From positions 1 through 64,000 of the forward strand of contig KZ538293.1 of the NCBI GenBank assembly GCA_000934665.2: a stretch of 64,000 nucleotides of DNA, given 5' to 3'. Made by a program: the position numbers and the translations under genes. Origin of the DNA: Catajapyx aquilonaris. Taxonomy: Eukaryota. The notes beneath the pieces are model-generated. The model was not told the DNA's origin and did not search any database. It saw nothing but the letters and a program-made list of their open reading frames with translations. Positions 491 through 28,018 of this stretch are shown here, piece after piece (positions within the stretch are counted from its first letter, which is position 1; each line of letters starts with the position of its first letter).

Positions 491-939
491 CTATCATAGA
501 TTCAATAATAAACTATAGTAAATATGTAAGTGAATATGTATTGAATTGTATGGGAAGTACCTTGGATAAGTCCATGTGCCCATTGAATAATAGATAGTTC
601 AGGGTGGAAAAAAATCATTCTCAGTACATTTGCTTGGGTAATGCTTCTATAGATACTGTCGTCATTGTCAGAACGGAAGTTCATGTATATTTCCGCAACT
701 GAACAAATCCACTCTATTTGATGAGATGTCGAAAATCCAAATCCATACCACTCATTTCCTGGGTGTAATTATTCTGTTGCATTACTTAACACTATGAGAG
801 TCAAGCGTTGCTATACCGACGCACAACGAAAGAGTCATGATTTATTCCGCTTAAGGTTTGTACATGCCTTGGTTGTGTAATGCCAATCACCTAAGTGCAA
901 CATGGTGAAACTTGGTGTGTATACACATCATGAATCGCT

Positions 940-2999
940 ATGTTGCAAATGTGTCCCTCTGAAGGAAAGATGTTGATTTGCTTGGTGCTGATTCTGCTGG
1001 TGTTGAGAATAGTTCAGGTAGATACAGTGGCATTGCTTCAGGAAGATGAGGAAGAAGAACTTGTGTCTCGTTTTGTTCAAGATCTTCTGGTCCATGAAGA
1101 GTTGAGTGGATGCTCGTTAGTGATGTCTGATGTTGATATGCACAAGGTTCAGACTATGAACAGATTGCTATTGCGACAGAGCCAGTTGTACTCGACATCT
1201 GTTTCAATCAGCACTGGACACAACGCGTTTCGACCCAAACCATGGAGTGAATACATTGGACTAACAGGTCCGGAACAGATGTACTCCTTCACTACCATGC
1301 CACCTGATATGATGTCCCAAGTGCACCTCGGACACAAATGTGTCCTGCAAGTCTTGGTGTCCGACAGTCCGTCTACCTTGCCTGAACAACTGGTGCAAGT
1401 CGCCGGAACAGTCCGAGTCAGAAACCTGGATGACTTCTTCTTCTTTCACTTCAGAAACATGTCACGAGAAATCAAGAACGATGTGATGGATCATCCGGCC
1501 AAAGGAATACGGTTCAAACTGATAAGCAGGTATGTCCAACTTACACCATTTTTGATTAGGTAAAACATTCTCTATTGCGTACTTACAGCAAAGATGAAAA
1601 CGGGCTGCTGTTGGAGACAGTCTGCTTCTTCTGCCACGATGGAAACGTGTCTTTTCAAACCCTTGGAATCTACCCTAGTCAAGGTGTTCCTCAAGATGTC
1701 TACAGGAACAAGGAATCGATCAGAAGAAACCAACCGATAGTCATCAGATTCGTTCATTTCGAAACACTAGACACCACAGTGTCCAGAAAGAACCAGAGGA
1801 TCCTTGGAAAGCAATATCTGAGCACAACTGAAAGGATGTTTGTTGAGTTAGAAAATTATCTGAACGCCAAGATGAAAGTGATTGTATACGCGGATTATGG
1901 CGAAGAAGCGATGGATTCAATGAGACCAAACGGAAGCTGGACAGGATCAGCTGCATACATCCTAGATGGTAAAGCTGACGGAGGAGGAATCTACATACTG
2001 TCAGATTTGCATATCCGACAGGTGACATACCCGACTTTACCTGCGTCATTAAACCTAAAATTTGTCACTGCTGTGCCTCAGGTGGTGATTCCTCTGGATG
2101 TACTGTTCCTTCCATTCACACCATCAATGTGGATGACCCTTTCTGTCACCTGGATCGTCTCTGGAGTCGTGCTATGGGGTGTGATTCGCGCATCAGGAGG
2201 ATCAACCAGTTTCGGTTCATCCATATCTTCAGTATTGAAAATGATGATTTACCAGCCGAACAACCTGCCACCGTTTGAAGCTTCGAGAATCTTCGAAGCC
2301 TCTTTGTGGATCGCGTCTATCATCATATCCTGCGCATATGTGACCAAAGTCCTAGCTTTTCTATCTGCTGTATCCAAAACTGAGATGCCCAAGACACTGG
2401 ATGAGCTTCAGCAGAAAGGATTTGAAAGCTTGATACCACTTCAAACCTGGATTCTTCTGAAGCATGCGACTCCCAGAAGCTCAGTTGACTTAGAGCTGTT
2501 CAACAGATCCTCATTCTTTCCTAACATTGAAAGCTGCATGGATGAAGTTGTTGGAAATTCGAATAAAGCTTGTGTCTCATACAACTACTTCATCCGCCGA
2601 AGTCTGTACAGCTACATGGATCCAATGGGACGAAATACCTTACAAGTTGCTCCAGAAGAATCTTACATCATCTACGCCATATTATCATTCAGCAAGAGTT
2701 TCATATTGGGTCCAAATTTTTCCAGGTTCTGGATGAGGGTTCTGGAAGGTGGTATGGTTGACCAGTGGTCACGAGAAGAATCTTTCGTCAATTACTGGCT
2801 GAAGAGGAGACGACTTAGACACGAAGGAGGAGCCTTGATTTATGAAGCTGCTGATGTTGGAGTCAAATCAGAGAATTTGAATGTATTGTTCGCTTTTTGG
2901 GTCATTGGAATGTGGGCTGCTTGTGTGGTCTTCTTGGTCGAGTTGGCCTACAGGGTTTGTTGCAAGAGGAAGAACAATAAGATTGTTGCTACTAACTGA
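940..2999 (+). CDS. Divergent ionotropic receptor (IR, iGluR-derived chemoreceptor), 2 exons: 940-1529 and 1589-2999
   Basis: ORFs 940..1563 and 1575..2999 are joined in frame by a 59-bp phase-2 intron (AG|GTATGT 1530 ... TTACAG 1588). Signal peptide, S1 motif NGSWTG...DGKAD, PF..MW at M1, M2/M3 hydrophobic segments, S2 Cys and a C-terminal TM (FWVIGMWAACVVFLVEL). Start could be ATG 970. Confidence 0.9.
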
Positions 3000-3121
3000 T
3001 ATAAAATGAGACGACCAATGTTGCTTCAAGTGCACTTTAATGCTTCATAATAGATGTTCAGATGGTGATACACGTGTGAAATATTAATTTTAAAAAACAT
3101 GTTTACCTTATTCATAAAGTC

Positions 3122-3612
3122 ATGTAGCGGCTACATTTGATAGCCAAGTTATTTATAGCAACTGATGGGCGCTAAGAGATGGGTTAACAATATTAGTTAT
3201 TTATACCTGGAGATATAGCTAGTCGTCATTTGGAAATGTACTAGAGCAGTCGGTAGATTGAGTTGTCCTGTAGGATTGACTGATTTCATCGTGTCCTCGA
3301 CCGGAATTTCAGCAAATCGTCCTCATTACACCTCGTAACATCTGTAAGGTAAGGTGCTGCAATTAATTTTGTAGGTTAAGATCGGACTCAATATTATAGT
3401 TGGTGAATTGGCAATGTCGGGTGTGGGATTGCTTGACTGCACTTTATTTTAAATATTGCTCATATTTCCATTTGAGAATCGGGCTTGAGTTGGGGATGGG
3501 GACTGTGGCAAAGGGGTCATTTTAAATGTATTTAAAATCAGGGAAACCTTTTTACGGTCCCGGCAACGTCACCTTAGTAACTCAACATGTAACAATGTTG
3601 TATAGCTTAATT
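3122..3612 (+). repeat. Block upstream of GTSF1-like genes, copy 1 of 3 (others ~9783-10261 and ~10851-11340); possible promoter plus non-coding first exon
   Basis: All three start GCGGCTACATT(T)GATAGCCAAGTTATTTATAGCAAC, contain an Inr-like (C)TAGTC/TCAGTC and a strong donor AG|GTAAGG, and end ...ACTCAACATGTAACAAT. The promoter role is inference. Confidence 0.8.
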
Positions 3613-4474
3613 CTTGTACTAACGCAATGCAGTGCACATCCAGATGACACAGCCACTCTATTTACTGGCCGTATTGCATGGCGCAAAAATTACACTGAAA
3701 TAAATGAAATCAATTTGTAATGAAATCAGCGAGGCTTACAGGACCCCACCCAAACACAGTCATGAAAATGGCCGCGCTTCAGTTTCTCAACCTAATATTT
3801 TGATTATTGAATAAACATGTTGCCACGGAATTTACTTTGACATATTGATATACTATAAAATATTGATTCAAACAGACAATAGTATTGACGTCACTGAGGG
3901 CAACAACGATCTTTCACATTGTCAGCAATGACAGTAACTATATTAAAATCTTACAACGTCAGCTGGTGAAACATAAGACAAATGCAGATAATATTTGTCC
4001 ACTCTCTAATGAGAAAAACAACAAAAAATTGCCTTCAATAGGTTCAATAGGGCTATCAAAAATTAAATTAATTTTACTTCACTGTGTACTGTATCCACAG
4101 TATTCCTAATGTCCTCATCAGTGTGATTGCAATGGCAACATCTCGTTCAGCAATGCACATTACCTCACGACAATGTCACATTGAACATATTCAACATGTT
4201 CAATGTGACATTGTCGTGAAACAAATTTTGTTTCAGTTCCTGGTGCAAAAATCTGCTTGTCTTGGATCGAGCCACGTCCTCAAACGAACTCCTGTGCAAT
4301 GGCAAGCTGGAAGAAAAGGTACGGACAACAATTGTTTATTCTGTGCAAAATCATATTTGGCCATATCCAAAATAATAGTGTGCCCACCCTACAATATTAC
4401 ACGTGACATGACATAGCAAACAAATTACTGTACATCGAAATCAATGTTCAATAATTAGGGAGGTGAAGGCAGCG

Positions 4475-5491
4475 ATGTCAGGTGTCAACAGAGTTAAGAA
4501 GCCAGCTGTCCCACTGGCTGAAGGCGAGTATTGGAAAATGTGCCCGTACAATCGCGGGCACGTCATCCTGGCAACCAAGTATGTCCGCCATCTACTCAAG
4601 TGTAGAAAGCAGTACCCAAACGCGGATATCAAGATTTGCTGTTTTAATGCGTCTCACCACGTTCCCATGGCTGACCTGGAGAGCCATCAGAGGAGCTGCT
4701 CCAATCGTGTTAGGATGGAATATGTCCCGCGTGAGTAGTCCATGTCCACTGTAATGTGTTTGTTCGGCTTCGGCACAGTGTAGCCGACCCATAGGGTCAA
4801 ATAACGATTACAACTTGTCCTGTTTTTGCGTTAATAATATGCAATTGTAGCATATTCTAATCTGTTATTTTGTATTTAGATGGCTCAAGTGCTAAGGATG
4901 ATGATGCTTTGAAGGGCATGGGGCATACCAATCAGAACACGACTAATGATGACGACTGCTGGGACGATGCTTCTGATGGCACGTACGATCCCAACCAAAA
5001 GCTGAAGACCGTGACTCTCCTTATGTAAGATCATATCCCCAGTAAATAATACAGTAGTCAGCTACAGGATATGCAATAATTATTACTTCCGATGTTATGC
5101 TATAACTTTCTCAATATGCAACGGAATAATTTTGCATTATAATATTGGAAATATATAATTATATATATATGCTATTAGTGCATCAGAGGTTTGATAATAT
5201 TGTGCCTTTTGATTTCAGTGCTCCACAGAACATTAGCCGATCGCAGCGAATAAATTTTAGGAACAAGCAAGCCAACTTGTACAGGTAGGTTGACCCAAAA
5301 GCAACAAGGGAACCAACATCCAAGAAGAGGTGTAGTAACAATGTCATTTCAGGTTGTCAAAGTCTGTTGAGGTACATCCTCCTTCTCCACCTTCCCCATC
5401 TACTGGTGTGAAGCCACATTTGCGCCTACCTCGATTTCCAAGCCTACCAGGCTTCAAAAACAGGGTTGCAAAGGCTGTCATCTCCAGGTAG
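4475..5491 (+). CDS. Gtsf1: GTSF1/Asterix-like protein (two CHHC U11-48K zinc fingers), copy A; exons 4475-4730, 4880-5024, 5219-5284, 5353-5491
   Basis: Fingers CPYNRGH-x9-HLLKC and CCFNASH-x9-HQRSC. Exon 2 gives the acidic DDDCWDD...TYDP segment and exon 3 gives SRSQRINFR, both typical of arthropod GTSF1. All three GT-AG junctions keep frame (phases 1,2,2) and are conserved in copy B. Confidence 0.9.
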
Positions 5492-6269
5492 AAGAACAAG
5501 TCTGCTGAAGAAGAACGCAGGAGTAGCTCACGATGATGGCTAATTTTGAGAATACTATTGCCCTGTCGTCACCGTGTGGTTCCCAGATTTCTTCACAAGA
5601 TGGGACAACAATATTGTTTCTACAGTATTTAACAATTTCTCGTTTTGGATCATTAACCCACCCCCGTACCCCCATGTTAGTTTTAAGCAAGTTACGTCAC
5701 AGTTGATGAGCACCTACAGCCCCATTCCTCCTGAGTCAGTGATAACCTCCATAGTCAACCAGAAAATTCAGCGACACGGCCTTGAGAACCCCCTCCTATC
5801 AACAAGGACAAAATGCGCAGAAAATTACTAGTCTTTTCGACATCAAATTTTCCGACGTCATTTGAAGAAGAACCTTCACCATAAATCAAAACTCTTTTTG
5901 TGGCCTTCAACCTGCAAAGCATACATTTAGACCAGGTTAGACGTTGTAACTTGCACCGAGAAATCCGATGAAGTCACCTAAATGTAACTACTATTCCTGG
6001 TCTGATGGCATACAAGCATGCCTCCTGAGTAATATTACATGATGGTGTGACTGTGAGTCACTCCTTGTAAAAAGTGAGTGCGAAATACAACATATTGTGC
6101 CCTTTTCATGCGTTTTTATGACTAATGGGCCGTAAAGACGGCTTTCAATATTACAAGAGAAGAACGGTCATGAACTGATATGAACTCTCTACCATTTATT
6201 TTTTATTCAGTTTTATTCAATTCTCGAAAGTACATTTTACAGCAGGTTACGAAGAACAACAAGTTTCTT

Positions 6270-6696
6270 TAGTACATGTCAGAGCGTAGTGAAGTTTCAC
6301 AGTCATATAAAGCCAAAGTTGACTGTCATGGAGCAGAGCAGGACATGTCGTTCCAGCGAAATCCAAATTGCGTTTCCAGCAGAGTTGTCATGCAATTTTC
6401 ATTTCCTCTTCTCCACTATCACAACATCAGAAACCGTTTATTAGTAGTTTCATATTCAAAAAATTATGAAATTCAAAATGCAAGCTAGGCATCGGAAAAA
6501 ATTGTTGTGACTTACTGCGTGCTGAAGGTGCAATAGGTGTGATCTATGACGAGGAGATGTCCCCTAAAAGGCCCAAGGAGGCCTATTGCAGGATATTCAG
6601 CGCATTTTTATCCCGTAATATTATTATTATTACGTCTTGAGCAGATGCAATTGTTGCGACAATTAGAGCCGTGACAATGGATCGCAAAATATTCAT
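6270..6696 (-). pseudogene. C-type lectin pseudogene (damaged exon 1, exon 2 apparently deleted, 3' part of exon 3)
   Basis: ATG 6696 gives signal-like MNILRSIVTALIVATIASAQD with later stops, ending ...IAPSAR|GTAAGT like the neighbours' exon 1. ~6410-6290 reads RGNENCMTTLLETQFGFRWNDMSCSAP* followed by a disrupted GFI/CET end. TATA at 6766-6771. Confidence 0.75.
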
Positions 6697-7535
6697 AGTT
6701 AATGATGATCTGCCACTTCTGATGGAAGATCCTGGAATGCTCCACTTCGCAGCATTACCGCTGGCTTTATAAGGAAGAATTTTCGCCTTGTAATAATATT
6801 ATTTCCTGATGAATATATCGGCCAATGCCCCCGATAATAATGCGAAAATATGTCAGTGTCATTCGACCCGTGTAATTATGGGTAACAGCGTGTCCTTTCA
6901 TTGTTATCCACTACTCTAAAGCAGGTGGCAGGGCTGCGAACCCTGGTGTATTCTACACAGGACAATGACCTTTCTGGAAGAGAAATGCAGAGTACATAAT
7001 TAACATCACTTCCTGAACATGCTGTAGGGTTTGAAGTGAAGGTTGGAATCTATAAATATTGCGAGTGTGACATATTGTCCGATTCCTTCCGTTATGGAAA
7101 GTTATCAGAGACTTAATAATAATTTTGAACTGTAATAATAAACTGTTACAAGTGGATCTGTCTTTATTTTAATCTTACTAAATTACCAAGGGTTCATTTT
7201 TCAGAGGGAAACACAATCACAAGCTTCAGATATTAGAAAATGTCAGTGTTTCAGATGTGTCAGACACGAAGCAGATTAATCAGACATATTTTATTTTTTA
7301 AATTTATTACAGTATTACATGAAAACATTTCTTCACAAACAAATTGAGTGCTTTTATGCTATGTGGACTGAAATTATGCTTATAATGTTATTGGCCTAGA
7401 AGCAATCGGACACAATGCAAAACAAAATATTTGTAACTAATAAAATACACGCATGTCCTTCTGTTTGAATGTTTATGGCTGCTTATTGTAACATGTGTTA
7501 TTGTAGCAAAATATTAATTGCAATTTCAGAAAATG

Positions 7536-8197
7536 TTAAGCTTCGCAAATAAATCCTTGATTAGCCAGAGCGCAGTTCCTGTCATCCCATCGAAACGCAT
7601 AGGATGAAACCAAAGACATGCAATTTTCATTTCCTCTGTAATTGTCAGGCGCCCCCGGGAACCAATCGGTGTAATCGACTGGCTTCAATGTTCCTTGCCA
7701 ATACCAGGTTCCTTCGTGACCTAGGTCGTATCCGCCAACGAAGAAATTACGGCCACGAAAATCTGTAACATAACAATTTTATAAGCACATGTTGAAGGTG
7801 CACTTGAATAGTCTTACATCTCAACAGGTGATCTTGAATGTAATCGTTTTCCACCGGAGACTCAATTGTAATAAGATTTCCTCCAATGACTCTGCAGTAT
7901 TCGGCTGCTCTCCACCAATTTTTTTTCATACTCGGATTTCCGAAATAGTAACATCCTGAAGCAATGTTCTGGAAAGGAACTGGGCAGGCCTCTGAAATAA
8001 ATTGAAAGACTGTACTTTTCAATAGACGCACACAAAATATGACTTCATGTATGAAGCAGACAGTTTCTCAACACATACAGTCAGTAACAAGACTTACTTG
8101 CAGAACGTAATGCAGGTGCAACATTTGTCCTGTTGGATGATCCATAAACTGATGTTACAGCGATGACCGCCAGAAATGAAGCCAGAACCTTAGCCAT
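7536..8197 (-). CDS. Secreted single-domain C-type lectin; exons 8197-8098, 7991-7818, 7762-7536
   Basis: Signal peptide MAKVLASFLAVIAVTSVYG; CP..F.....CYYF...NWWRAAEYC...GGNLITIES; FFVGGYDLGHEGTWYW...DW...APDN...ENCM...WDD.NC...FICE*. Two phase-1 GT-AG introns keep frame. Confidence 0.93.
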
Positions 8198-8237
8198 GAG
8201 GCTATCAAGTGCTTTTACGTGGAGTACCAGCTATGAA

Positions 8238-8243
8238 TTTATA
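8238..8243 (-). promoter_or_regulatory. TATA box of the lectin at 7536-8197 (equivalent box at 9495-9500 for the second lectin)
   Basis: Identical AGGTATAAATTC ~40-50 bp upstream of each lectin ATG, with GATA-like motifs nearby. Confidence 0.55.
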
Positions 8244-8791
8244 CCTAAAAAGAAATCTTGATAAGAAAATGCCTGGACTTAGATCCAAATGCGCGGGAAA
8301 TAAATCTATAGTGCAAAATTTTGCAACGCACGTCTTGTGAGTCTCCGTTTCGCTCAAATTATACGCCTGCCGATTGTTATGCAATGTCATATAACCGCAA
8401 TATTTCATTTTTAATATATCAGAACCACTAGATAAGAGGGTTTTAATTTATGTGAACTTCCCCGCAATATCTGCTTTGAGAGAAAAGCCGCCGACTGATC
8501 TGGCGAAAATTTTGCAACATTTTACATAACCTACATCTTGAAAAATGTTTGAGAATAAAAGGTATATTGCTATGAACTAGTTATGTAATTCTCATTATGT
8601 GAGATAATGAAGATGTAAATTAAAGTAGAAAACCACTTGATTCGCTCACTTTTTTCTATGCCTGCGACCTGCGGTGTAGACGTTATAAATTAAATGGAGA
8701 TAAACACCGTTCATTGCATACTGTTACTTGTCGACTTTATTCTTACGGCTAACATTGGTTTTGCCTTCATGAGTATTCTGCAGTGGACACT

Positions 8792-9448
8792 TTAGGTTTC
8801 ACAGATAAACCCATAGGTTCTGTTATCAGTAAGATGGCAGTAATCGTCGTCCCAGCGAAACCCGTAATCCACATTGAGGGTCATGCAATTTTGACCACGT
8901 ATGTCTCCCTTCATATCGTTGTTCGGTTGTCCAGCACCCCAATCGAAGAAGTCGATATGCCTCAATGTCGCCTGCCAATACCAGATTCCCTCGTGGCCGA
9001 GGTCGTAACCGCCAATGAAGAACCGACTCTGAGGGTAGTCTGTAAATGTTTACAACATTATGTAATTAAATATTGTTCAATATGTTTATGGATATGCTTA
9101 CTTCTTAACAGATGATCTTGAATGTACTCGTTTTCAACTGGATCTTCTATGGTGAGCAGGTTCCCCCCGATGATCCGGCAGTACTCTGCAGCCTCCCACC
9201 AGTTGTTCTTCAGATTGGCTGCACCGAAGTAGTAGCATCCTGAACCAATGTTCTGGAATGGCACTTTGCACGCCTCTGAAATTATCATCATTACATTTAA
9301 TGTCAATTTCGAAAAACTAAAAGCTGTTGCAGTAGGGCTTACCATGAGAGAGAACAGCAGGTGCGACAGATACTCTGCCAGCTGGAGGTGCTGCAGATAT
9401 TGCAGACACGACAAGTAAAGCCACAATAGCTACCAGTGTCTTCCACAT
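8792..9448 (-). CDS. Secreted single-domain C-type lectin, paralogue; exons 9448-9343, 9275-9102, 9039-8792
   Basis: Signal MWKTLVAIVALLVVSAISA and the same exon structure as the first lectin. CYYF...NWWEAAEYC; FFIGGYDLGHEGIWYW...DWGAGQPNN...QNCM...WDDDYC...GFICET*. Confidence 0.93.
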
Positions 9449-10582
9449 GGTGACCACTGTTGCGAAAAGGGCTTTTGATAGATAGCGATTGGAATTTATA
9501 CCTGAATTTTGCGATAATCTACCAAAGGACATAATGATATCGCCTTATCAATGACGCAAACAAGTGCAGAATATTCATTTTTTTTCAATCGATCAGTATA
9601 ACATGCCATGTTGTTTTATCACTGAACAAACACTTTACTTTAATATCTTATACATACTATATACATTGGGTCCCAGGAGGATAACCACACACACACACAC
9701 TTCCCATAACACTGCCCATCAAGTTTCATACATATTGAACAATAAAGTGGTGAGGAAAAAATTGCGCGAAAAAATCTGAAAAGCGGCTACATTGATAGCC
9801 AAGTTATTTATAGCAACCGGTGCCAAGAGACGGGTTAACAATAATATATTATATTAGTTGTTTACTAAGAGATATAGCTCTCAGTCGTCATTGTGATCAG
9901 CGACAGACCAGACGCAATATTGAGCTGTCCTGCAGGATTGTCTTAATATCACTGTCTCCTCATCAGTTTCCTTGAATCGTCTTGCATATTACATCTTACT
10001 GCAAGGTAAGGTGCTGCAATATTAGTTTGTATCATTATATTCGCGTCCCAGGATCGGACTCGATAGTTGTTGGTGAATAGGCGATGTCTGATGTGGGAAG
10101 ACTTGACTTTATTGTATTTAAATATTGCTCATATTTCTGGGGTTGAGGATGGGGACTGTGCTGGCAAAGGGGTCATTTTTAATATATTTAAAATCAAGGT
10201 GATTTGTATAATTATTATGTCCCTGCAACGTCACCTTGGAAACTCAACATGTAACAATATTCCAAAAGTATATGATGAAAAATTGAAGGCTGTGCAGTGT
10301 ATTGAAAGACCGGCACTACTCTTAGTTATTCCCCAACCCCAAAATGGCCAATCTGGCCCGGGTGACTGTGCCAGCAGGCAGCTATGGGGTCACTGGAGAA
10401 CTCAAGGCCCACCACCACGTCAAGGTGGAGATACCATGCACGACACTGTGATCGTGTATAGTGAAGGGAGTCATATTATCTGTGGGTCTCGGAAATCCTC
10501 TAGAGCTGTGGTCGCACCTCGGCAACTCAACAGTTGTTTACACCCCATTGCGCACGATTAGAACCCGGGCCAATGTCCCAAA

Positions 10583-10760
10583 GTCCTTTTCGCCTCCTGC
10601 GGCGAAGGATGACCTTGGATGTCAAGTCCAATGTGCTTATGACCTTCCCAGTAAAAAACTACCCCTAATCATTCCCCTGGGGCATATGTCGAGGCCTCCG
10701 TATGGATTGGAATTGGTAGCAAGAGGACAGACATACGTCTTGAAATATGTATTAGATACA
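10583..10760. repeat. Dispersed repeat fragment, second copy at ~24779-24945
   Basis: Shared CCTTTTC.CCTCCTGC.G..AAGGATGACCTTGGA.GTC.AGTCCAAT...AAAAACTACCCCTAAT...CCCTGGGGCATATGTCGAGGCC. Confidence 0.7.
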
Positions 10761-11460
10761 TACATGTCACATTAACACCAGATCCGGTAGAACAAACATT
10801 TGCTTGGGAAATGCTTCGGAAAAGGGTGAAAATGCCAACATAAAGTATAATGTAGCGGCTACATTGATAGCCAAGTTATTTATAGCAACCGGTGCCAAGA
10901 GACGGGCTAACAATAATATATTATATTAGTTGTTTACTTAGTGATATAGCTCTCAGTCGTCATTGTGATCAGCGACAGACCAGTCGCAATATTGAGTTGT
11001 CCTGCAGGATTGTCTTAAAATATCACTGTGTCTCCTCATCCATTTCCTTGAATCGCCTTGCACATTACATCTTACTGCAAGGTAAGGTGATGCAATATTA
11101 GTTTGTATCATTCGCGTCCCAGGATCGGACTCGATAGTTGGTGAATTGGCGATGTCTGATGTGGGAAGGCTTGACTTTATTGTACAGTATTTAAATATTG
11201 CTCATATTTCTGGGGTTGAGGATGGGGAATGTGGCAAAGAGGTCGTTTTATAAAATACATTTAAAATCAAGGCGATTTGTATAGGTCCCTGCAACGTCAC
11301 CTTGGAAACTCAACATGTAACAATATTGTGTAGCTTAATATTATGCGAAACCAATGTAGCTAACACACTTTTAATGAGAAAAGCAGTCTAAAATGGCTTT
11401 TAAGAAAGGGAATAGACATGTCAAAATTTTATCGCCAAGTCCACGTTCATTTACAATATA

Positions 11461-11657
11461 CAGAGTGACTCCAAAGTCAGGATACGCATAAGTAATTGGA
11501 TTGTATTGTTGTGCCAACTAGCAAATTGTTGACACTTACTGTTAGTAAATGATGAGTTGGTACAGTACGGTTGGCACTTGGAGTTGTCACTACTGAAAAC
11601 CAACAATGCAATTTATATTACTACATAATTATGTATCCTGACTTTAGATCCACCCTG
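11461..11657. mobile_element. Tc1/mariner-type MITE
   Basis: TA|CAGAGTGACTCCAAAGTCAGGATAC ... GTATCCTGACTTTAGATCCACCCTG|TA: imperfect TIRs with TA flanks. Confidence 0.75.
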
Positions 11658-12147
11658 TAGTTTGGCTTGATATGGCTGTTAGATTATGTCAATCATATAA
11701 TAAGGGAGGGATTGGTGTAGGATTAATTTTAGCGTCATAGAAAAATCCGATTTTAAGCACATTCACATCTTGGGAAATGGATATTAAATTTTACTTCACT
11801 GTACTCATGCTATGTACTTACAGTTTTCATCATATTCCTAACGTCACTATTATTGCAATGGCAACATCTCGTTCACTAATGCACCTTACGTCATGGCAAT
11901 GTCACATTGCACTTGTTTCAGTTCCTGGTGCGAAGGTCTGCTTGTCTTGAATCGAGCTACATCCTCAATCCAACTGCTGTGCAATGGCAAGCTGGAAGAA
12001 AAGATATGGACGACAATGCTGTGAAAAGTCATATTTGGCTATATCTAAAATAATAGTGTGCCCACCCTACAATACTGCATGTGACATGATATCGCAAACT
12101 AATTACATCGAAATCACTGTTCAATAACTAGGGAGGTGAAGGCAGCG

Positions 12148-13126
12148 ATGTCAGGTGTCAACGGAGTTAAGAAGCCAGCTGTCCCACTGGCAGAAGGAGA
12201 GTCGTGGAAAGTCTGTCCGTATGACAGAACCCACGTCATGCTAGCAACTAGGTATGTCCAACATATAACTAAGTGCAGGAAGCAGAATCAAAATGCCGCC
12301 GTCAAGATATGCCTTCATGATGCTTCGCATCACATCCCAATGGACGAACTGGACGAACATGAGCTGAACTGCGATAGTCGCAAGGATAGTCGCATCAGAA
12401 TGGAAGATACTATGCGTGAGTACTCCTTGTCCACTGCAATATGTTTGTTAGCCAGAGTGTCGCCTACCAAGATTTATTGTTGACCCTTGGCATGTTTTTG
12501 CATTATCGCCATCATATGTACGCCATGTAAAGCATTTCCAACCGGTTATTTTGCATTTAGGCTGCTCAAGTGACCAGGATGGTGATGCTTCGAAGGACAC
12601 TTTGGACATGGGGCAGACCAGTAGGAACACGACAGATGATGGCGACTGGTGGGACAACGCAATGGATGGCACGTATGACCCTAATCAAAAGCTGAAGACT
12701 GTGCATCTCCTTATGTAAGTTCATATCCGCACTAAAAACACAGTAGGCAGGCAAATGGAGCCTAGAGAAGGCAGCTGTTGTCCCCCACCTTACCAGACAA
12801 GTTCATCAGAGGTTTGATAATATTGTGCCTTATGATTTCAGTGTTCCACATAACATGACTCGATCTAAGAAAATAGATTTTAGGAACGAGCAATCCAACT
12901 TGTACAACCAGCAGACCAGGTAGGTTGACCCAGAAGAAACAATGGAACCGACATCCAAGAAGAGGTGTAGTAACAATGTCATTTCAGGTTCACGAAGTCT
13001 GTTGAGGTACATCCTCCTTCTCCACCTTCCCCATCTACTGGTGTAAAGTCACAGATGCGCCTACCTCGATTCCAAAGCCAACCAGGCTTCAAAAACATGG
13101 TTGCCAAGGCAGTTGTGACCAGGTAG
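12148..13126 (+). CDS. Gtsf1: GTSF1/Asterix-like protein, copy B; exons 12148-12415, 12561-12714, 12842-12919, 12988-13126
   Basis: Fingers CPYDRTH-x9-HITKC and CLHDASH-x9-HELNC; DDGDWWDN...TYDP segment. Same intron positions and phases as copy A, with an open frame throughout. Confidence 0.9.
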
Positions 13127-13197
13127 AAGAAGAAGAAGAAGAAGAAGAAGAAGAAGAAGAAGAAGAAGAAGAAGAAGAAGAAGAAGAAGAAGAAGAA
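13126..13197 (+). repeat. (GAA)24 microsatellite directly after the copy-B stop codon
   Basis: Perfect GAA run; copy A has only GAAGAA at this position. Confidence 0.95.
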
Positions 13198-13199
13198 CG

Positions 13200-14050
13200 G
13201 AGTAGCTTATGATAAGCATTTTTAGAAGATTTTTTCTCCCCGTCTTCACCTTCGTTCATAGATTTCTTCCACTTCTAGTTTTGGATAAATAATCCACCCT
13301 CCCCTACCCCCCCTGTTAGTTTGAAGAAAGTAACTTCATTGTTGATGATGTCCATGACATACACTTATAGTATTTAGCGAATACCTAGCTCATTTGGTAG
13401 GATATTTCACATTTAGCACTACCCAATGGAGGATTCATACAAGAAGTAAGTTCAAAACACTGCAAAACATTGTTAGGAAAAAACAACTATCAAGTCATGA
13501 AAGATGAGCTCGTTGATGGACTGGATGGTTGGTTTTTTCACTGGTGAGTGTCTACCAAAAGTTACCTCCACATGACACTGCGCTACTGAGGGACAAGTTT
13601 GCTTATGGTATTGATGATATACTGATGATGATAAATGAGCGGCATGGATTAGGACGTATGAGAGCTGAAAATATCTTCCATCACCAAGGGCCCGATTTTA
13701 CGAAGTAGAAAATTCTGCACAGGAAGAGACAAAAGTATGTCTGTATATCACTCGGAAAATAATGTAGGTTCAATACTAATGCAATTCTGTGCCTTTCAGC
13801 TGGGTCAAAGGTCATTGTCTGGAGCTGTACCACCTCCTGAGTGTCAGACGTGACCTCCTTCATCCAGAATCTGAAAGTCAGCGACACTATGAACCCTGGA
13901 GCCTATTGATGAACCAGAAAATGATGTGCACAATCTCTCCGACATCTCCAAATTTTCGGACATCATTTTTTAAGAAGAACCTTTCAACTCTTATTGCGGC
14001 CGCTGTAACTTTCACTGAGATATCCTGTGAAGTCATCTAAAATGTAACAA
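13200..14050 (-). pseudogene. Possible heavily decayed IR-like coding relic (internally deleted counterpart at ~5500-5990)
   Basis: Minus-strand fragments occur in IR order: MTFDPAERHRIALVLNLHYFPSD (cf. KFVTAVPQVVIPLDVLFLPFTPS), IIIS...SKLV (cf. IIISCAY/AKLVSF), FFPNNVLQCF (cf. FFPNIESCM). Many stops and frameshifts; similarity judged by eye only. Confidence 0.3.
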
Positions 14051-14897
14051 CAGTTGTTACATTTGCCATCAGTTGTTATGCCATCAGTTCAGGAATAGCT
14101 ACTTTTCCTGCGAACTTCCTGATAGTTAATATTACATGTTTGTGTGACCTCGTAAAAATGGGTTGCTAAATACAACAATTATCACCTTTTCGTGTGTATT
14201 TTATGTCACCTGACAGTGACTTCATTATTACTGAGTTTTTATTCTGATAAATAGTTGTGTATAAAATAGTTTCGGCCGGAAATGTGTAGACACATTGGAC
14301 AACAAATTGCGTCATACCAACTCCAGCTGGAATATCAATGAAGATTAGGCCAGTATCATGTCGCCTCATTAAGAAACATAATAAAGCGACTGAAAGCAAT
14401 GGTTAAATTACACATGGCTTTATCATATGGTCGCATTTTTTTAAAGCTTGGCTTATCTAAATTGCCTTTATTACCGCCCCTGCTCCTGATATGTTGTGTC
14501 TCTTCAGGTGTAATCACTTACGGATATATGTATCAGCAGGAATTTTTTTTTCTTCCTATTATTAAAACCTACTCTATCTGACTTTGTTAGTCGTCACGTT
14601 CACACAATGTGCTTATTTTGGGACCTTACTTTGTGTCCAGAATATGTGATAGAGGGAGGCGACAAAAGGCGTTGTAGTTGGTGCCTAAGGACTTTCCTTC
14701 AGTGGCTGCCTTACCAGGTACAGTACCTGGTGCTCTCTGGACATGGTGCTCTGACCATGGCTGGCTCAAATGGCTCAAGTACCCCACCGCCCCGTCCTTG
14801 GGCTGGCCCCGGCATTGCAGCACATCAAAACCACCCATATACAAAATGAAGCAGCTGAAGTCTGATGCCGATCTCTTTCGCAGGAAACATCTGAAAC

Positions 14898-16483: not shown

Positions 16484-17417
16484 TATACTGGGAGAAGTAG
16501 CTGCCAGATGCAATTTTGATCAGAGCTAGAAGACAAGTTTAAAAGGGGGAAAAAATATAGTTAACGTCACAATAATATTCACTAGGGAACAAAATTGAAC
16601 TTCCTTTCTGGCACATGCACATAAACTTATGCGAACTTCAGGGATCAGCAGTTGCTGTGATAAGTACGAAAAATGTCAACGTGAAAAATAATGTAGGTGA
16701 CAATAAATCTAAGGACTAATCGAAAACCACTTTTCGTACACTGTATACTGCCATGGCATCGGAGAGAAGGGCATTAATCGGAAGGCACTTGATCAGAGAA
16801 ATCGAACCGTACCTTTCCGCGCAGACTGTGGAAACAATCGCATTATTTGTCATCTGGAAGGGGATTAGTATGTTGTCATGTGGTGACTAGATATAAACTC
16901 CTTGGCAACAGACTGCTTGTAAATGTTTTATGTAAATAATTGCTCTTATTATAGGGGAGATAATTATGTGCGCCGCGAGTATGACTACGTTGCTTATGAT
17001 TGATCCATCATTATTTTAGTGGAGAGAGCGGTTCGGGCTTGTTTTGAGAAATGTACGCTCGCTCAGGAAACGATTATTCTCGTATTAACCCGAGATATTG
17101 CGCTTATAATTATTTGGGACACTGGGGGCTGCACTCATATTAATGACGGAACATCCTATTTGGTACAATTATTCATTACGGATGCCTCTGCATAATGGAA
17201 CAGCCTCCACAATTTTCCGTCATTAGACCTAGAGCGGGAAATTATGAAATTGGATATCTAATTACGCCTGCTGTGAGATTATCCAAATCGTTCCCATTTT
17301 GCATCTGATATGTCCAGGTAATGGGCATTGACAAGGGTATCGCAGAAGCCATACGTGGCAAACAATACTATACATATACGTGGCACATCAGAATAATATG
17401 TGAGTGGGCCAGCAGAC

Positions 17418-19481
17418 ATGAAGTCGTTTAGACGTGTCCTGGTGTGGCTGGTGATGATGGTGAGAATAGTGTTGGGCAATAACATTAGCCTGGACAAGGA
17501 TTCGGAGGAGGACGAGTCTGCGTCCCGACTGGTGGGACACGTCCTTCGGAGGGCGGATCTGGCTGGATGCACGCTGGTCACCGCCACCGATTCAGTCTCC
17601 TTCAGCGTCCCGGTTCAGAAGCTCCTGATCGGACACTCGGACAGGTACCTGCCCACCTTCCCCCTCCGGATGACCACCTCCAGTCCGGACAGACAAAAAC
17701 ACTCGCTTGAGGACTACCCCTGGCTGGTCAGACAGGACCAGATGCACGACTTCACCACTGTCCCGCCTCAGCTCCTGTCCCGTCTCTGGCCCGGACTCTC
17801 CTGCACTTTGCACCTGTTCATGCCCACCCATGTCCACGCTCTGCCACCACTCGTCATGCACGCAGCCTCCTTGGTCAAGGTGGCTCCAGGGGAAGATCGA
17901 TTCATCATTCACTTCACGACTGATGGTCACACTCATCCTCATCATGCTCAGGAGGTAGGAGAGGTGCACAGGATCATGGCCCACTCCCCACCCGCCACCT
18001 CCCTCAGGCTAAAGGTCATGGTCACAGGGGATGGCCCCGATGGGCGGATCAAGGTGGACACGGTCTGCTTCTACTGCGCACAAGGAGGGTACCCACAAAT
18101 GCTGCATCTCGGCGTGTTCGATTCATCTGATGACGGTGGTGGAGCCATGGCGAATCTCTTCTTTCGAGACTACGATGTGAAGAGGATGAATGGAAGGGTT
18201 CTGAGAACTCGATTCTACGTGGACATTGACATGCCGGCTGCGAGGAAACAGAATGAGGCTGAGGGCGAGTTTACTCTCGATATGTATAAGAGAATGCTGA
18301 TATTACGGGAAGATACTTTAGGGGGGATACTTGAGTACACAGTGGAACAATTCAGAGTGGAGCTGGACTATCGTTACCCGAACGGAACCTGGGGAGGGTT
18401 GGTGGGTTGTCTGGTGCAGAACAAGTCGGACATATTGCCAGTCATTCTTCCTTCTGACGAATCCTACTCAGTCGTCAATGTACCCCAACCATACTTATTC
18501 GCCCATGCCACGGGTTTGACGAGAACACCTCGAGGAATGGTGACCTGGAAGGTGATCTTTCTGCCTTATCCACTCTTGGTTTGGGTGTTGATTGCAGTAA
18601 GCTTAATCACATTGTTTATTGCTGCATATTGTATTTCCAAACGGAGAGGCGCATCCAGGACACCTCTGCCAATTTCTCAATCGGTTGGCCTCATTTTGCG
18701 CACATTTGTGGACCAAAATACAAACCTAACAGGGAGGCATTTCTCTGTAACTTTCACCGCATGTATGCTCATGTTTGTCACCGTGATCGTTACCGGTTAC
18801 AAGGCGAAACTAGTGTCCTTCCTGACCTGGCCTCCGAGAGAATTTGTTCCAACCACTGGACAAGAAATCCTTGATTACAACTGGAATATGGAAGCAGATA
18901 TGTTAAACTATCTCGTCATGGGTCACTATGTAAAAGGAGCCGAAGACCCCCTTATTATTGAAATGTATAAACGCATTAAACTAATGGGAACAATTCAGGA
19001 TTGCCTGCGTAAAACACGAAAGGAAAACGTTGTGTGCTTCGGATTGAACATTCTTCTGGATCGCGAAACTTATCTTCACACAAGCAGTGACGGGACCTTA
19101 AACCTTCAGTACATTCGACAACAGATCGCCTCAGGGTATGCCTTCACTGGCACTGCTAAAGGACAAACCCAACTGTTTCACATGCTCAGAAAAGTGATGG
19201 CCCTGGCCGTGGAAACCGATTTATTCTACACCTTCCTCGAGCACGAGAAGTACATGAACTTCCTTCGCAACCTGAGGAGGATCCTAGAGGCTGAAGAGAT
19301 CGCTGCCAAGACATACGTTCGAGACGAAATGATAACAATGGCCAAGTTGGGGGCCATTTTCAATATGTGGTTTTCCGGCCTGGTAGGTTGTTTTCTGGTG
19401 CTGGTGATGGAAATAATTATTAATATACGTTACATTAACTCTGGTGTTACACGGCTTATCAGTGTTTCTCCCCGAACATGA
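17418..19481 (+). CDS. Divergent ionotropic receptor, intronless
   Basis: Single ORF (first ATG 17418): signal peptide, TVCFYC, PNGTWGGLVGCLVQNKSDI (S1), LPYPLLVW (M1), RTFVDQ pore region, GYKAKLVSFLT, S2 and a C-terminal TM. Confidence 0.93.
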   Translation: MKSFRRVLVWLVMMVRIVLGNNISLDKDSEEDESASRLVGHVLRRADLAGCTLVTATDSVSFSVPVQKLLIGHSDRYLPTFPLRMTTSSPDRQKHSLEDYPWLVRQDQMHDFTTVPPQLLSRLWPGLSCTLHLFMPTHVHALPPLVMHAASLVKVAPGEDRFIIHFTTDGHTHPHHAQEVGEVHRIMAHSPPATSLRLKVMVTGDGPDGRIKVDTVCFYCAQGGYPQMLHLGVFDSSDDGGGAMANLFFRDYDVKRMNGRVLRTRFYVDIDMPAARKQNEAEGEFTLDMYKRMLILREDTLGGILEYTVEQFRVELDYRYPNGTWGGLVGCLVQNKSDILPVILPSDESYSVVNVPQPYLFAHATGLTRTPRGMVTWKVIFLPYPLLVWVLIAVSLITLFIAAYCISKRRGASRTPLPISQSVGLILRTFVDQNTNLTGRHFSVTFTACMLMFVTVIVTGYKAKLVSFLTWPPREFVPTTGQEILDYNWNMEADMLNYLVMGHYVKGAEDPLIIEMYKRIKLMGTIQDCLRKTRKENVVCFGLNILLDRETYLHTSSDGTLNLQYIRQQIASGYAFTGTAKGQTQLFHMLRKVMALAVETDLFYTFLEHEKYMNFLRNLRRILEAEEIAAKTYVRDEMITMAKLGAIFNMWFSGLVGCFLVLVMEIIINIRYINSGVTRLISVSPRT

Positions 19482-25331: not shown

Positions 25332-25701
25332 CAAGGGCGGATCCGGAGAGGAATTTTGGGGGAGGAACTATTCTGTATTAATGTTGCCCCCCCCCCCCCC
25401 CNNNNNNNNNNNNNNNNNNNNNNNNNNNNNNNNNNNNNNNNNNNNNNNNNNNNNNNNNNNNNNNNNNNNNNNNNNNNNNNNNNNNNNNNAATTGGTAGGA
25501 CTTTTTTCCAAAAAAATCACGAATTAGTCATTTCTAATGCTATTTTAAACATTTCGGGACGGGGGAGGGGAGCAGCTTAATATTCATTTGCATCGAGGAT
25601 GGAACAAACATATAATTACACATATCCACCCATCTGCATAGTTTAGCCAGAGTGGGGGGGGATGTCCCCTATCCCCCCCCCCCCCCGTGCATCCGGCCCT
25701 G
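25332..25701. mobile_element. DNA-transposon-derived MITE with 7-bp TSD, spanning the assembly gap (N 25402-25489)
   Basis: CGTAAGT|CAAGGGCGGATCC ... GCATCCGGCCCTG|CGTAAGT, with poly-C/G subterminal hairpins. Confidence 0.75.
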
Positions 25702-25948
25702 CGTAAGTACAGGTGCAGTAGAGATATCCCCGGATTCCTTTCCTAGAAGATGATAGTTATCAGCTTGGGAATACTAGGAATATTGTCAATAACACCACTT
25801 AGTCCCACTTATCCCCATTATCTCTGTATTTTAATCTTCTGCCCGATACGGCCAGGATGTTGTCATTGATAAGGGGCTTTCTGGAAGGAGACGCCGATGC
25901 CACCAAAAATGCCTACGTGGCACAGAACATGTTAGTGAGGCAGCAGTC

Positions 25949-28018
25949 ATGGGGTCGTTTGGACGTGTCCTGGTGTTGGTGGTGCTGATTGTGAGAATAG
26001 TGTTGGGAAATAGCATTAGCCTGGACAAGGATTCGGAGGAGGACGAGTCTGTGTCCCGACTGGTGGGACACGTCCTTCGGAGGGCGGATCTGGCTGGATG
26101 CACGCTGGTCACCGCCACCGATTCAGTCTCCTTCAGCGTCCCGGTTCAGAAGCTCCTGATCGGACACTCGGACAGGTACCTGCCCACCTTCCCCCTCCGG
26201 ATGACCACCTCCAGTCCGGACAGACAAAAACACTCGCTTGAGGACTACCCCTGGCTGGTCAGACAGGACCAGATGCACGACTTCACCACTGTCCCGCCTC
26301 AGCTCCTGTCCCGTCTCTGGCCCGGACTCTCCTGCACTTTGCACCTGTTCATGCCCACCCATGTCCACGCTCTGCCACCACTCGTCATGCACGCAGCCTC
26401 CTTGGTCAAGGTGGCTCCAGGGGAAGATCGATTCATCATTCACTTCAGGACTGATGGTCACACTCATCCTCATCATGCTCAGGAGGTAGGAGAGGTGCAC
26501 AGGATCATGGCCCACTCCCCACCCGCCACCTCCCTCAGGCTAAAGGTCCTGGTCACAGGGGATGGCCCCGATGGGCGGATCAAGGTGGACACGGTCTGCT
26601 TCTACTGCGCACAAGGAGGGTACCCACAAATACTGCATCTCGGAGTGTTAGATCCATCAGATGACGACGGTGGAGGCATGGTGAATCTCTTCTTTCGAGA
26701 CTACGATGTCAAGAGGATGAACGGAAAGGTTGGTAGAATTCGATTTTACGCAGACATTGACTTGCCAGCTGCGAGGAAGCAGAAGGAGGCTGAGGGTGAG
26801 TTTACTCTCGACTTGTATCAGAGAATTGCGATTTGTGTGGAAAATGCTTTAAGAGGGATGTTTGAGTACACAGTGGAAGAATTCAGAGTTGAGCTGGACT
26901 TTCGTTACCCGAACGGAACCTGGGGAGGGTTGGTGGGTAGTCTGGTGCAGAACAAGTCGGACATATTGCCTGTCATTCTTACTTCTGACAAATCATACTC
27001 AGTCGTCAATGTTCCACAACCTTACGTATTCGGACATGCCACGGGTTTGACGAGAATACCTCGAGGCATCGTGACCTGGAAGGTGATCTTCATGCCTTAT
27101 CCCCTCTTGGTGTGGGTCTTAATTGCATTAAACTTATTTACATTGTTTATTACTTCATCTTGTATATCAAAAAGAAGACGCTGCAGATCGAAGAGACCTC
27201 TTTCACTGTCACAATCAGTTGGACTAATTTTGCGCACCTTTGTCGATCAGAACCTAAACCTGACAAGGAGGCATTTCTCTGTCAGTTTCACAGCATGTAT
27301 GCTCATGTTTGTCACCGTGATCACCACTGGATACAGGGCCAAACTAGTGTCCTTCCTGACATGGCCCCCGAGAGAATTTGTTCCAACAACTGGGCAAGAA
27401 ATTATAGATTCCAACTGGAATATGGACGCAGATATGTTAAACTATCTCGTCATGGGTCACTATGCAAAGGAAGCCAATAAAGGTACTCTTACTAGTGGAA
27501 TATTTGAACGTTTGAAATTAATGGGAACAATTCAGGATTGCCTGTGTAAAACACGAAAGGAAAACGTTGTGTGCTTCGGATTGAACATTCTTCTGGATCG
27601 CGAAACTTATCTTCACACTTGCAGTGACGGGACCTTAAACCTTCAGTACATTCAACAACAGATTGTCTCAGGGTATTCCTTCCCTGGCACTGCTAAAGGC
27701 CAAACCCAACTGTTTCATATTCAAAGAAAAGTAGTGGACTTGGCTGTGGAAACCAACTTACTCAACACATTCATCAAGCACGAGAAGTACATGAACTTCC
27801 TCCGCAATCTCAGGAAGATCCTAGAGGCGGAAGAGATCTCTGCCAAGACATACGTTCGAGATGAAGTGATGACAATGGCCAAGTTGGGAGCCATCTTCAA
27901 CATTTGGCTTCTGGGCCTCCTGGGGGGTATTGTGTTGCTGGTGATGGAAATAATTATTAATACACGTCGCCATAACTCTCGTGTTACACGACTAATCAGT
28001 GTTTCTCCCAAAACATGA
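25949..28018 (+). CDS. Divergent ionotropic receptor, intronless; close paralogue of 17418-19481
   Basis: 689-aa ORF collinear with the 17418 gene; AATAAA at ~28223. Confidence 0.93.
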   Translation: MGSFGRVLVLVVLIVRIVLGNSISLDKDSEEDESVSRLVGHVLRRADLAGCTLVTATDSVSFSVPVQKLLIGHSDRYLPTFPLRMTTSSPDRQKHSLEDYPWLVRQDQMHDFTTVPPQLLSRLWPGLSCTLHLFMPTHVHALPPLVMHAASLVKVAPGEDRFIIHFRTDGHTHPHHAQEVGEVHRIMAHSPPATSLRLKVLVTGDGPDGRIKVDTVCFYCAQGGYPQILHLGVLDPSDDDGGGMVNLFFRDYDVKRMNGKVGRIRFYADIDLPAARKQKEAEGEFTLDLYQRIAICVENALRGMFEYTVEEFRVELDFRYPNGTWGGLVGSLVQNKSDILPVILTSDKSYSVVNVPQPYVFGHATGLTRIPRGIVTWKVIFMPYPLLVWVLIALNLFTLFITSSCISKRRRCRSKRPLSLSQSVGLILRTFVDQNLNLTRRHFSVSFTACMLMFVTVITTGYRAKLVSFLTWPPREFVPTTGQEIIDSNWNMDADMLNYLVMGHYAKEANKGTLTSGIFERLKLMGTIQDCLCKTRKENVVCFGLNILLDRETYLHTCSDGTLNLQYIQQQIVSGYSFPGTAKGQTQLFHIQRKVVDLAVETNLLNTFIKHEKYMNFLRNLRKILEAEEISAKTYVRDEVMTMAKLGAIFNIWLLGLLGGIVLLVMEIIINTRRHNSRVTRLISVSPKT

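Follow-up and report, generated by a model that had tools for sequence, protein, structure and literature searches.

The window analysed here is the whole stretch of 64,000 nucleotides (nt) that makes up positions 1 to 64,000 of contig KZ538293.1 in the Catajapyx aquilonaris assembly GCA_000934665.2. It carries two plus-strand genes of the GTSF1/Asterix family, arranged in tandem, head to tail (copy A at 4475-5491 and copy B at 12148-13126). Each gene has four exons, and the gene models give proteins of 201 amino acids (aa) for copy A and 212 aa for copy B. When the copies are compared they form a mosaic, in which two short tracts are closely alike and the tract encoding the zinc fingers is deeply diverged also at its silent sites. 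We suggest, with moderate confidence, that A and B are old tandem paralogues which have both been retained and have been partly homogenised by gene conversion or recombination. The coding features are as follows.

4475..4730, plus strand: copy A, coding exon 1 (codons 1-85 and one further base)
4541-4699, plus strand: copy A, double CHHC finger module (codons 23-75)
4880..5024, plus strand: copy A, exon 2 (acidic central region, which includes the W...YDP motif)
5219..5284, plus strand: copy A, exon 3 (gene model)
5353..5491, plus strand: copy A, exon 4 (stop codon TAG)
12148..12415, plus strand: copy B, coding exon 1 (finger module 12214-12372)
12561..12714, plus strand: copy B, exon 2 (WW...YDP motif, three codons more than in A)
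12842..12919, plus strand: copy B, exon 3 (four codons more than in A)
12988..13126, plus strand: copy B, exon 4 (stop codon TAG)

The reading frames of both copies are open and all of their introns (6/6) are canonical GT-AG introns. The coding sequences differ by three indels of 4, 3 and 4 codons, all of them insertions in B and all in frame (3/3); the four extra codons at the end of B exon 1 come from a 12-nt tandem duplication (12373-12396), the units of which differ in their last bases. No third coding GTSF1 copy was found when both proteins were searched against the 64 kb window with tblastn. A small exon of the 5' untranslated region (UTR) ending at 4318 in A was considered and dropped, as the corresponding dinucleotide of B is AT and not a GT donor. 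A perfect (AGA)24 microsatellite (13125-13197) starts within the stop codon region of copy B and breaks the contigs built from reads; its counterpart in copy A is short and interrupted.

On all the sequence criteria tested, A and B are GTSF1-family genes. With exon 1 as the query, the Pfam family zf-U11-48K (PF05253) matches finger 1 above its curated cut-off in both copies (1.5e-8 for A and 8.7e-11 for B). The mouse GTSF1 structure 6x46 aligns over both fingers (E 4.2e-13 for A and 4.2e-10 for B), a second GTSF1 chain, 9nhb_E, is also aligned by exon 1 of A and of B, and finger 2 alone matches the CHHC structure of U11-48K, 2vy4 (E 0.0037 and 0.0081). By sequence comparison, these matches to solved finger structures settle the finger fold. 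A language-model atlas groups exon 1 of A with CHHC clusters (score 0.94). Both copies also satisfy a regular expression for the double finger, each finger being C-x5-H-x9-H-x3-C, and the zinc ligands are complete (8/8 in A and 8/8 in B). Downstream of the fingers, the central tryptophan motif of exon 2 is a single W followed by ...YDP in A and WW followed by ...YDP in B. Of the 106 library relatives with a tail of at least 60 aa, 55 have the same kind of pattern, W...[YF][DNS]P, downstream of the fingers. The central region of B gave no match below E 0.5 to solved structures, and a correspondence of the motif to W98, W107 and W112 of mouse GTSF1 is at most tentative.

Mutating R26, R29, K36 and K39 abolishes RNA binding by mouse GTSF1, as Arif et al. 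report (PMC9385479). In the 6x46 alignment these positions correspond to residues 32, 35, 42 and 45, which are L, K, K and K in copy A and L, R, K and K in copy B. Thus three of the four mapped RNA-contact positions of finger 1 are basic in both copies, and the R26 position is occupied by Leu in both, unlike in mouse GTSF1. The copies differ clearly in the charge of the finger module, which holds 8 basic and 3 acidic residues in A (net +5) and 6 basic and 7 acidic residues in B (net -1). For finger 2 the net charge is -1 in A and -6 in B, where this finger is without basic residues. An earlier, sequence-only reading of this DNA had assigned the pair to GTSF1 and had stated that all eight ligands and both frames are intact and that finger 2 of B is the more acidic (MDELDEHE in B, MADLESHQ in A), with a changed tryptophan motif (DCWD in A, DWWD in B). 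All of this was borne out, the family assignment by the PF05253 and 6x46 matches.

The divergence between the copies was mapped in three ways (a global MAFFT alignment with a sliding window, a segment-by-segment realignment, and likelihood/binary segmentation), and the three maps agree. Segmentation was performed on 1172 ungapped columns covering A 4228-5491 and was tested by permutation with 300 shuffles. Four breakpoints were placed at A 4519, 4864, 5062 and 5181, each of them matched by fewer than 1/100 of the 300 shuffles, and they delimit the following segments.

A 4228..4518 and B 11913-12191, plus strand: young tract 1, 90.7% identity over 279 aligned nt (upstream non-coding DNA and about the 15 first codons)
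A 4519..4863 and B 12192-12544, plus strand: old island, 66.3% identity over 332 aligned nt (fingers, exon 1 tail and intron 1)
A 4864..5061 and B 12545-12750, plus strand: intermediate tract, 81.7% identity over 197 columns (exon 2 and its edges)
A 5062-5180, plus strand: essentially unalignable stretch (53 aligned columns)
A 5181..5491 and B 12804-13126, plus strand: young tract 2, 89.1% identity over 311 aligned nt (end of intron 2, exon 3, intron 3 and exon 4)

The old island has a sharp left edge, about 8 codons ahead of the first finger Cys. From the UTR through codon 18 there are 3 mismatches in 62 nt, while the next 202 nt hold 70; in the protein, differences begin again at codon 19, after young tract 1. 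Codons 19-85 form the segment of lowest identity (65%), and intron 3, with 4 mismatches in 68 nt and no gaps (94%), is the segment of highest identity. Exon 4 is 87.8% identical in nucleotides, with 35 of its 45 residues identical. The island comprises the fingers, the exon 1 tail and all of intron 1 (149 nt), and there is no breakpoint at the end of the fingers. Over their aligned columns, intron 1 is 69.9% identical (with 22 gap columns in addition) and intron 2 is 70.9% identical.

Outside the coding region the likeness is also patchy. The duplicated unit, whose start lies close to 3122 in A and to 10851 in B, is 73-78% identical there; unalignable DNA (3629-4068) interrupts it, and the likeness fades to about 70% in the 3' UTR, so that non-coding DNA outside the two tracts of about 300 bp is either 70-78% identical or unalignable. 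As Jukes-Cantor (JC) distances, the divergence levels are about 0.05-0.13, 0.24 and 0.39-0.47; exon 2, the upstream block, intron 2 and the 3' UTR (JC 0.24-0.39) lie far above the young tracts. A search of positions 3000-14300 with Rfam found no known RNA family in the young tracts.

The silent sites follow the same map. Between the first and the last finger Cys (codons 23-75), 31 of the 53 residues are identical and 22 differ, and 17 codons are identical. Hence 14 of the 31 identical finger residues use other codons, as against 17 of 104 elsewhere in the protein (Fisher p=0.0027). Synonymous divergence (dS, Nei-Gojobori) is 0.27 in codons 1-22, 0.49 in exon 2, 0.23 in exon 3 and 0.21 in exon 4. 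For the fingers it is 1.86 (proportion of differing synonymous sites, pS, 0.69 over 32 synonymous sites), a value near saturation for which about 1.0 is equally defensible. At fourfold degenerate sites, 6 of 11 differ in the fingers (JC about 1.0) and 7 of 38 in codons 1-18 together with exons 3-4 (p=0.047). The silent divergence of the fingers is thus several times that of the young tracts. The ratio of nonsynonymous to synonymous divergence (dN/dS) is 0.15 in the fingers and 0.37-0.93 in the tail, which evolves more freely, and on the former value both finger versions are under purifying selection. Since the likeness of the young tracts spans introns and synonymous sites, selection on the protein cannot explain it.

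These results bear directly on what the sequence-only reading had proposed. Its hand count of finger differences (22 differing residues, 14 of 31 identical residues recoded) was reproduced exactly, as was its count of 4 differing sites among the 68 nt of intron 3, and its view that the first 14 or so codons, the upstream flank and exon 4 are very similar agrees with the 90.7% tract, the 3 mismatches in 62 nt and the 87.8% identity given above. On formal alignment the divergence is indeed not uniform, as the four permutation-supported breakpoints indicate. The description of the non-coding DNA as nearly identical holds for the two tracts of about 300 bp only and not for the rest. The divergence peak it placed in the zinc fingers is real, with a 66% island and high silent divergence; it is not confined to them, as it runs on through intron 1.

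The mosaic could arise in assembly, and the reads were used to check this. In each copy, contigs built from reads lead from exon 1 to intron 3 (A 4491-5345, B 12162-12980) with 0 differences from the window, and they break only at long identical words common to A and B. These contigs come from three DNA runs of one sample, which may be the source of the assembly itself, and they serve as a check of the assembly and not as independent biology. Copy A, the 6.6 kb spacer and the upstream flank of B share one and the same full depth (by run, about 33, 22 and 31), so A and B cannot be two alleles of a single locus. An assembly error, with two alleles or a collapsed or wrongly joined repeat posing as tandem copies and mixed haplotypes producing the mosaic, is therefore hardly credible in spite of the half depth of the B body, the structural heterozygosity just upstream of B (both described below) and an assembly gap within the window (25402-25489), given the full depth of A, spacer and B flank and the contigs which run unchanged from the finger tract to intron 3 in each copy.

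Exchange between non-allelic sequences can be seen elsewhere around the locus. The upstream part of the duplicated unit occurs in three copies, and one haplotype of the sequenced animal carries a deletion between two of them.

3122..3620, plus strand: duplicated block upstream of copy A, in which a donor-like GT is conserved at 3349
9782..10261, plus strand: block M, a third copy of the upstream block only, 86.5% identical to the block of B and 70.7% to that of A
10851..11339, plus strand: duplicated block upstream of copy B, sharing 73% identity with the block of A
10192..11261: deletion of 1070 nt on the second haplotype, where contigs join 10191 to 11262

The two sides of the 10191/11262 joint are homologous positions of M and B; contigs from the three DNA runs bridge it, at a depth of about 12 of 33. 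The joint is a hybrid single M/B block on the other haplotype. The A block at 3122..3620 may contain a non-coding first exon together with a promoter. In all three upstream copies, which are 71-87% identical overall, blocks of about 40 nt at 3124-3162, 9784-9821 and 10853-10890 are almost invariant and open with a short inverted repeat; a second near-invariant block, with an ACGTCA core, lies at 3556-3600 and at its two counterparts. The two blocks are candidates for shared promoter or enhancer sites. The stretch missing from the second haplotype contains a very high-copy repeat (about 10163-10916), the summed contig depth of which is 2,600-10,400 against about 30. Moderately repeated stretches (depth about 210-375), unalignable between A and B, occur in the spacer (6393-6769) and in the intron-like region upstream of B (11294-11670). 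All of these repeats are probably transposable elements.

A second tandem pair in the window shows a similar picture. It consists of intronless open reading frames (ORFs) on the plus strand at 17397-19478 (694 aa) and 25835-28015 (727 aa), whose proteins share 83% identity and have no Pfam match at E 1e-3. Over about 500 nt (17529-18028 and 26060-26559) the two ORFs are 99-100% identical, within a background of 74-97% and between unalignable flanks, and from this contrast the stretch looks like a recent conversion tract. The assembly gap mentioned above, a run of N, lies just upstream of the second copy of this pair. Taken together, the copies of the M/B block, the hybrid haplotype and the tract in the second pair make non-allelic exchange credible at this locus.

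We propose the following history for the GTSF1 pair. An ancient local duplication would have produced two tandem GTSF1/Asterix-family genes, which would later have traded sequence, either through gene conversion between non-alleles or through unequal recombination. Two or more such events of roughly 300 bp would have brought the divergence down to about 10%: one would span the stretch that begins shortly before the start codon and stops at about codon 15-18, the other everything from the last part of intron 2 to exon 4. An earlier or partial reset may account for exon 2, and the tract with the two CHHC fingers and intron 1 would have escaped resetting and retained the old divergence. The presence of several divergence levels fits several exchanges of different age better than a single import. 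The earlier proposal of old paralogues under gene conversion agrees with this history, as the heterogeneous silent divergence fits exchange between old paralogues.

That both copies have been kept is suggested by the low dN/dS of the fingers, the intact splice sites and the in-frame indels. Both may be taken as PIWI cofactors, since they keep the eight zinc ligands, basic residues at three of the four RNA-contact positions of finger 1 and the Trp...Tyr-Asp-Pro motif. We suppose that A and B probably dock on the same PIWI partner and may differ in what their fingers engage.

Several observations weigh against the proposed history. We infer conversion as the cause of the mosaic, and with two sequences only this comes from the pattern and not from a tree. 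The young tracts are not enriched in GC (0.43-0.45, versus 0.46-0.47 in the old island), and neither overall GC nor GC at third codon positions indicates a conversion bias, or a foreign composition in either finger tract; an enrichment of this kind is common in converted tracts and not obligatory. The fourfold-site excess of the fingers over exon 2 (6/11 versus 4/15) is not significant (p=0.23), and the silent excess of the fingers over intron 1 is also weak on fourfold sites alone. Alignments of introns understate their divergence, which makes the number of age classes uncertain. Finally, the contigs of the B body have k-mer depths of 16.9, 11.7 and 19.7 in the three runs against 41.3, 24.6 and 35.3 for those of A. 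This region, at about half the depth of both its flanks as well, extends from 12162 to about 13500 in 3/3 DNA runs; within the bins 12425-13178 no other contig reached 90% likeness. Copy B may therefore be hemizygous, it may have a second allele of very different sequence, or a path may have been lost in contig building.

What spared the fingers is a separate question, and a role of selection in it appears possible and rather doubtful. In the full form given to it by the sequence-only reading, which is similar to the case of the red/green opsins, this explanation states that conversion recurs along the pair and that selection removes the alleles with converted fingers because the two modules have specialised jobs. 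The peak of divergence does sit on the sole folded and functionally defined module, its left edge falls about 8 codons before the first finger Cys, both finger versions are constrained, and the modules differ sharply in net charge, all of which, as a pattern, corresponds to the signature described in published accounts (PMC3924837, PMC3728101). However, the island extends over the 149 nt of intron 1 and has no breakpoint where the fingers end, and its right flank, at 69.9% identity, is not low in divergence as in the opsins. The sharpness of the left edge resembles the endpoint of a single event, while recurrent conversion opposed by selection predicts a gradual decay. Conversion is known to stall in DNA that has already diverged, and chance or such a neutral barrier of homology would give the same island. 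A relative-rate comparison with the family consensus counts 7 positions unique to B and 2 unique to A, an excess that is not significant (p=0.18); with single outgroups, B is more derived or equal in 20 of 21 comparisons, with at most one p<0.05. On balance, we consider this explanation unlikely.

A different origin of the island, close to the alternative named in the sequence-only reading, would be a young duplication, at about 10%, followed by the import of 4519-4863 from a distant third GTSF1 paralogue, which would make exon 1 chimeric. Its sharp left edge (3 mismatches in 62 nt and then 70 in 202) and its behaviour as a single tract together with the intron are what such an import would leave. 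To see where the finger tracts belong, a tree was built from 72 rows (A, B, and the 70 of 136 library matches that contain a full double finger) and 53 columns. The finger branch is longer in B (0.42) than in A (0.24), which would favour an import, but A and B are sisters among the sampled family, with support 96/84 and a bootstrap that is not fully settled. This sisterhood gives no pointer to an origin of either tract from an anciently separate GTSF subfamily; a lineage-specific third copy is possible as a source, and within the window no third finger-coding copy was found by tblastn. Moreover, several other parts of the duplicated unit (upstream block, exon 2, intron 2, 3' UTR) are also far more diverged than the young tracts, and one import does not explain such a map. 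We therefore regard this origin as improbable.

The relatives used here are distant. An exhaustive profile search gave 1005 matches at E<=1e-3 and none at E<=1e-30, the best identity to either copy being about 52%. A word-indexed protein search found no relative among longer proteins (15 candidates, none of which scored) or among proteins of near length (no candidate). One metagenome locus (L001) was rejected as a chance pattern match that covers only residues 3-20, after which no finger follows.

A further alternative, a single age of duplication with conserved regulatory or splicing elements in the alike non-coding stretches and fast-evolving fingers, seems very improbable: the tract before the start codon could contain promoter or UTR elements, and short blocks are invariant in all three upstream copies, but the young tracts show several-fold lower divergence at synonymous and fourfold sites, no known RNA lies in the 94% identical intron 3, and a finger dN/dS of 0.15 signifies constraint and not acceleration.

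Against this background, the exchange between old paralogues proposed above can be compared with known GTSF systems. According to published work, which includes one review (PMC9539491), GTSF1 speeds target cleavage and for this must bind RNA, through finger 1, and PIWI, through central aromatic residues; discrimination between PIWI paralogues is there ascribed to the central and C-terminal regions, the fingers being conserved (PMC9385479, PMC9808576, PMC9539491). The Catajapyx copies resemble mouse GTSF1, GTSF1L and GTSF2 in their N-terminal tandem CHHC fingers, their central Trp motif and their small size with a long tail. More than one paralogue per genome is usual, as in the mouse set, and unlike in that set, as far as its published description goes, it is here the C-terminal end that is most alike and the fingers that are most diverged (PMC9385479). 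In Bombyx mori, Gtsf1 and Gtsf1L are likewise two paralogues in one genome, and as orthogonal partners of Siwi and BmAgo3 they have a demonstrated division of labour; their specificity is ascribed to the unstructured C-terminal region, and the excerpted account describes no tandem arrangement or exchange (PMC9808576). Judged from its sequence, the pair studied here, with the C-terminal end in the homogenised tract (exons 3-4) and the central exon 2 at an intermediate 82%, is the reverse of the published specificity pattern. Published work also notes that many animals have several GTSF paralogues whose knock-outs give no phenotype (PMC9385479, PMC9539491).

Other systems offer parallels for the island itself and for the role of the fingers. 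Like the red and green opsins, A and B are tandem duplicates that would undergo conversion and have a divergence peak over functionally important coding sequence. In the opsins the introns on both sides are low in divergence and orthologue data back conversion, whereas here the peak takes in the downstream intron and the background is patchy (PMC3924837). Islands of divergence that persist despite conversion are also described for another gene family, the GOT1 paralogues of the marine copepod Tigriopus californicus (PMC3728101). In nematodes the finger region alone binds RRF-3, so that the fingers can serve as a protein-binding surface and partner choice can be rewired through them, a precedent for a change of function by way of the fingers; the nematode genes are single-copy orthologues in another phylum (PMC13650160). 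A literature search, judged by title and abstract, found no paper on GTSF1 together with gene conversion.

The gene family, its multiple paralogues and patchy concerted evolution with an island of divergence are all known already, and the locus is one more clean case of such evolution in a tandem pair, with exchange visible as a polymorphism in the sequenced animal. A homogenised C-terminal end combined with fingers that are diverged and yet constrained would amount to a natural swap experiment on what the fingers contribute beyond generic RNA binding. A further step would be to see in A and B two cofactors with a common PIWI-docking tail kept alike by conversion and with two finger modules held apart by selection, the acidic finger 2 of B altering the target or making B a competitor. 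We think this scheme quite unlikely to be right as a whole. If it were true, finger 2 of B would change engagement on the PIWI-guide-target complex, or B would occupy PIWI without the same activation, and specialisation would proceed via the fingers, opposite to the tail-based specialisation in mouse and silkworm. The pair remains a lead.

The rest of the window contributes some minor observations. Just upstream of the duplicated block of A, two adjoining open frames of 209 and 479 codons (934-2996, plus strand) give no Pfam match at E 1e-3. Upstream of copy A there is a near-perfect inverted repeat of 55 nt (4165-4219, 94.5% self-complementary), of which B has one arm only; the hairpin at 4153-4233 gave only sub-threshold matches to Rfam microRNA families (27-37 bits against gathering thresholds of 67-100), as expected of any long hairpin. 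Further downstream, a MAP1B-like gene on the minus strand (34680-42062) has a single open stretch of 2461 codons and matches MBL_MAP1B (3.9e-105) and MAPB1_N (9e-17). The spacer between the GTSF1 copies holds a minus-strand ORF (8721-9429) that resembles C-type lectins and whose part 9061-9429 matches Pfam Lectin_C at 9e-5. Run X5, the kind of which is unrecorded and which covers neither GTSF1 copy, gave a contig over 8721-9039 that has a depth of 387 and skips 62 nt with CT..AC ends, like spliced RNA of the minus strand.

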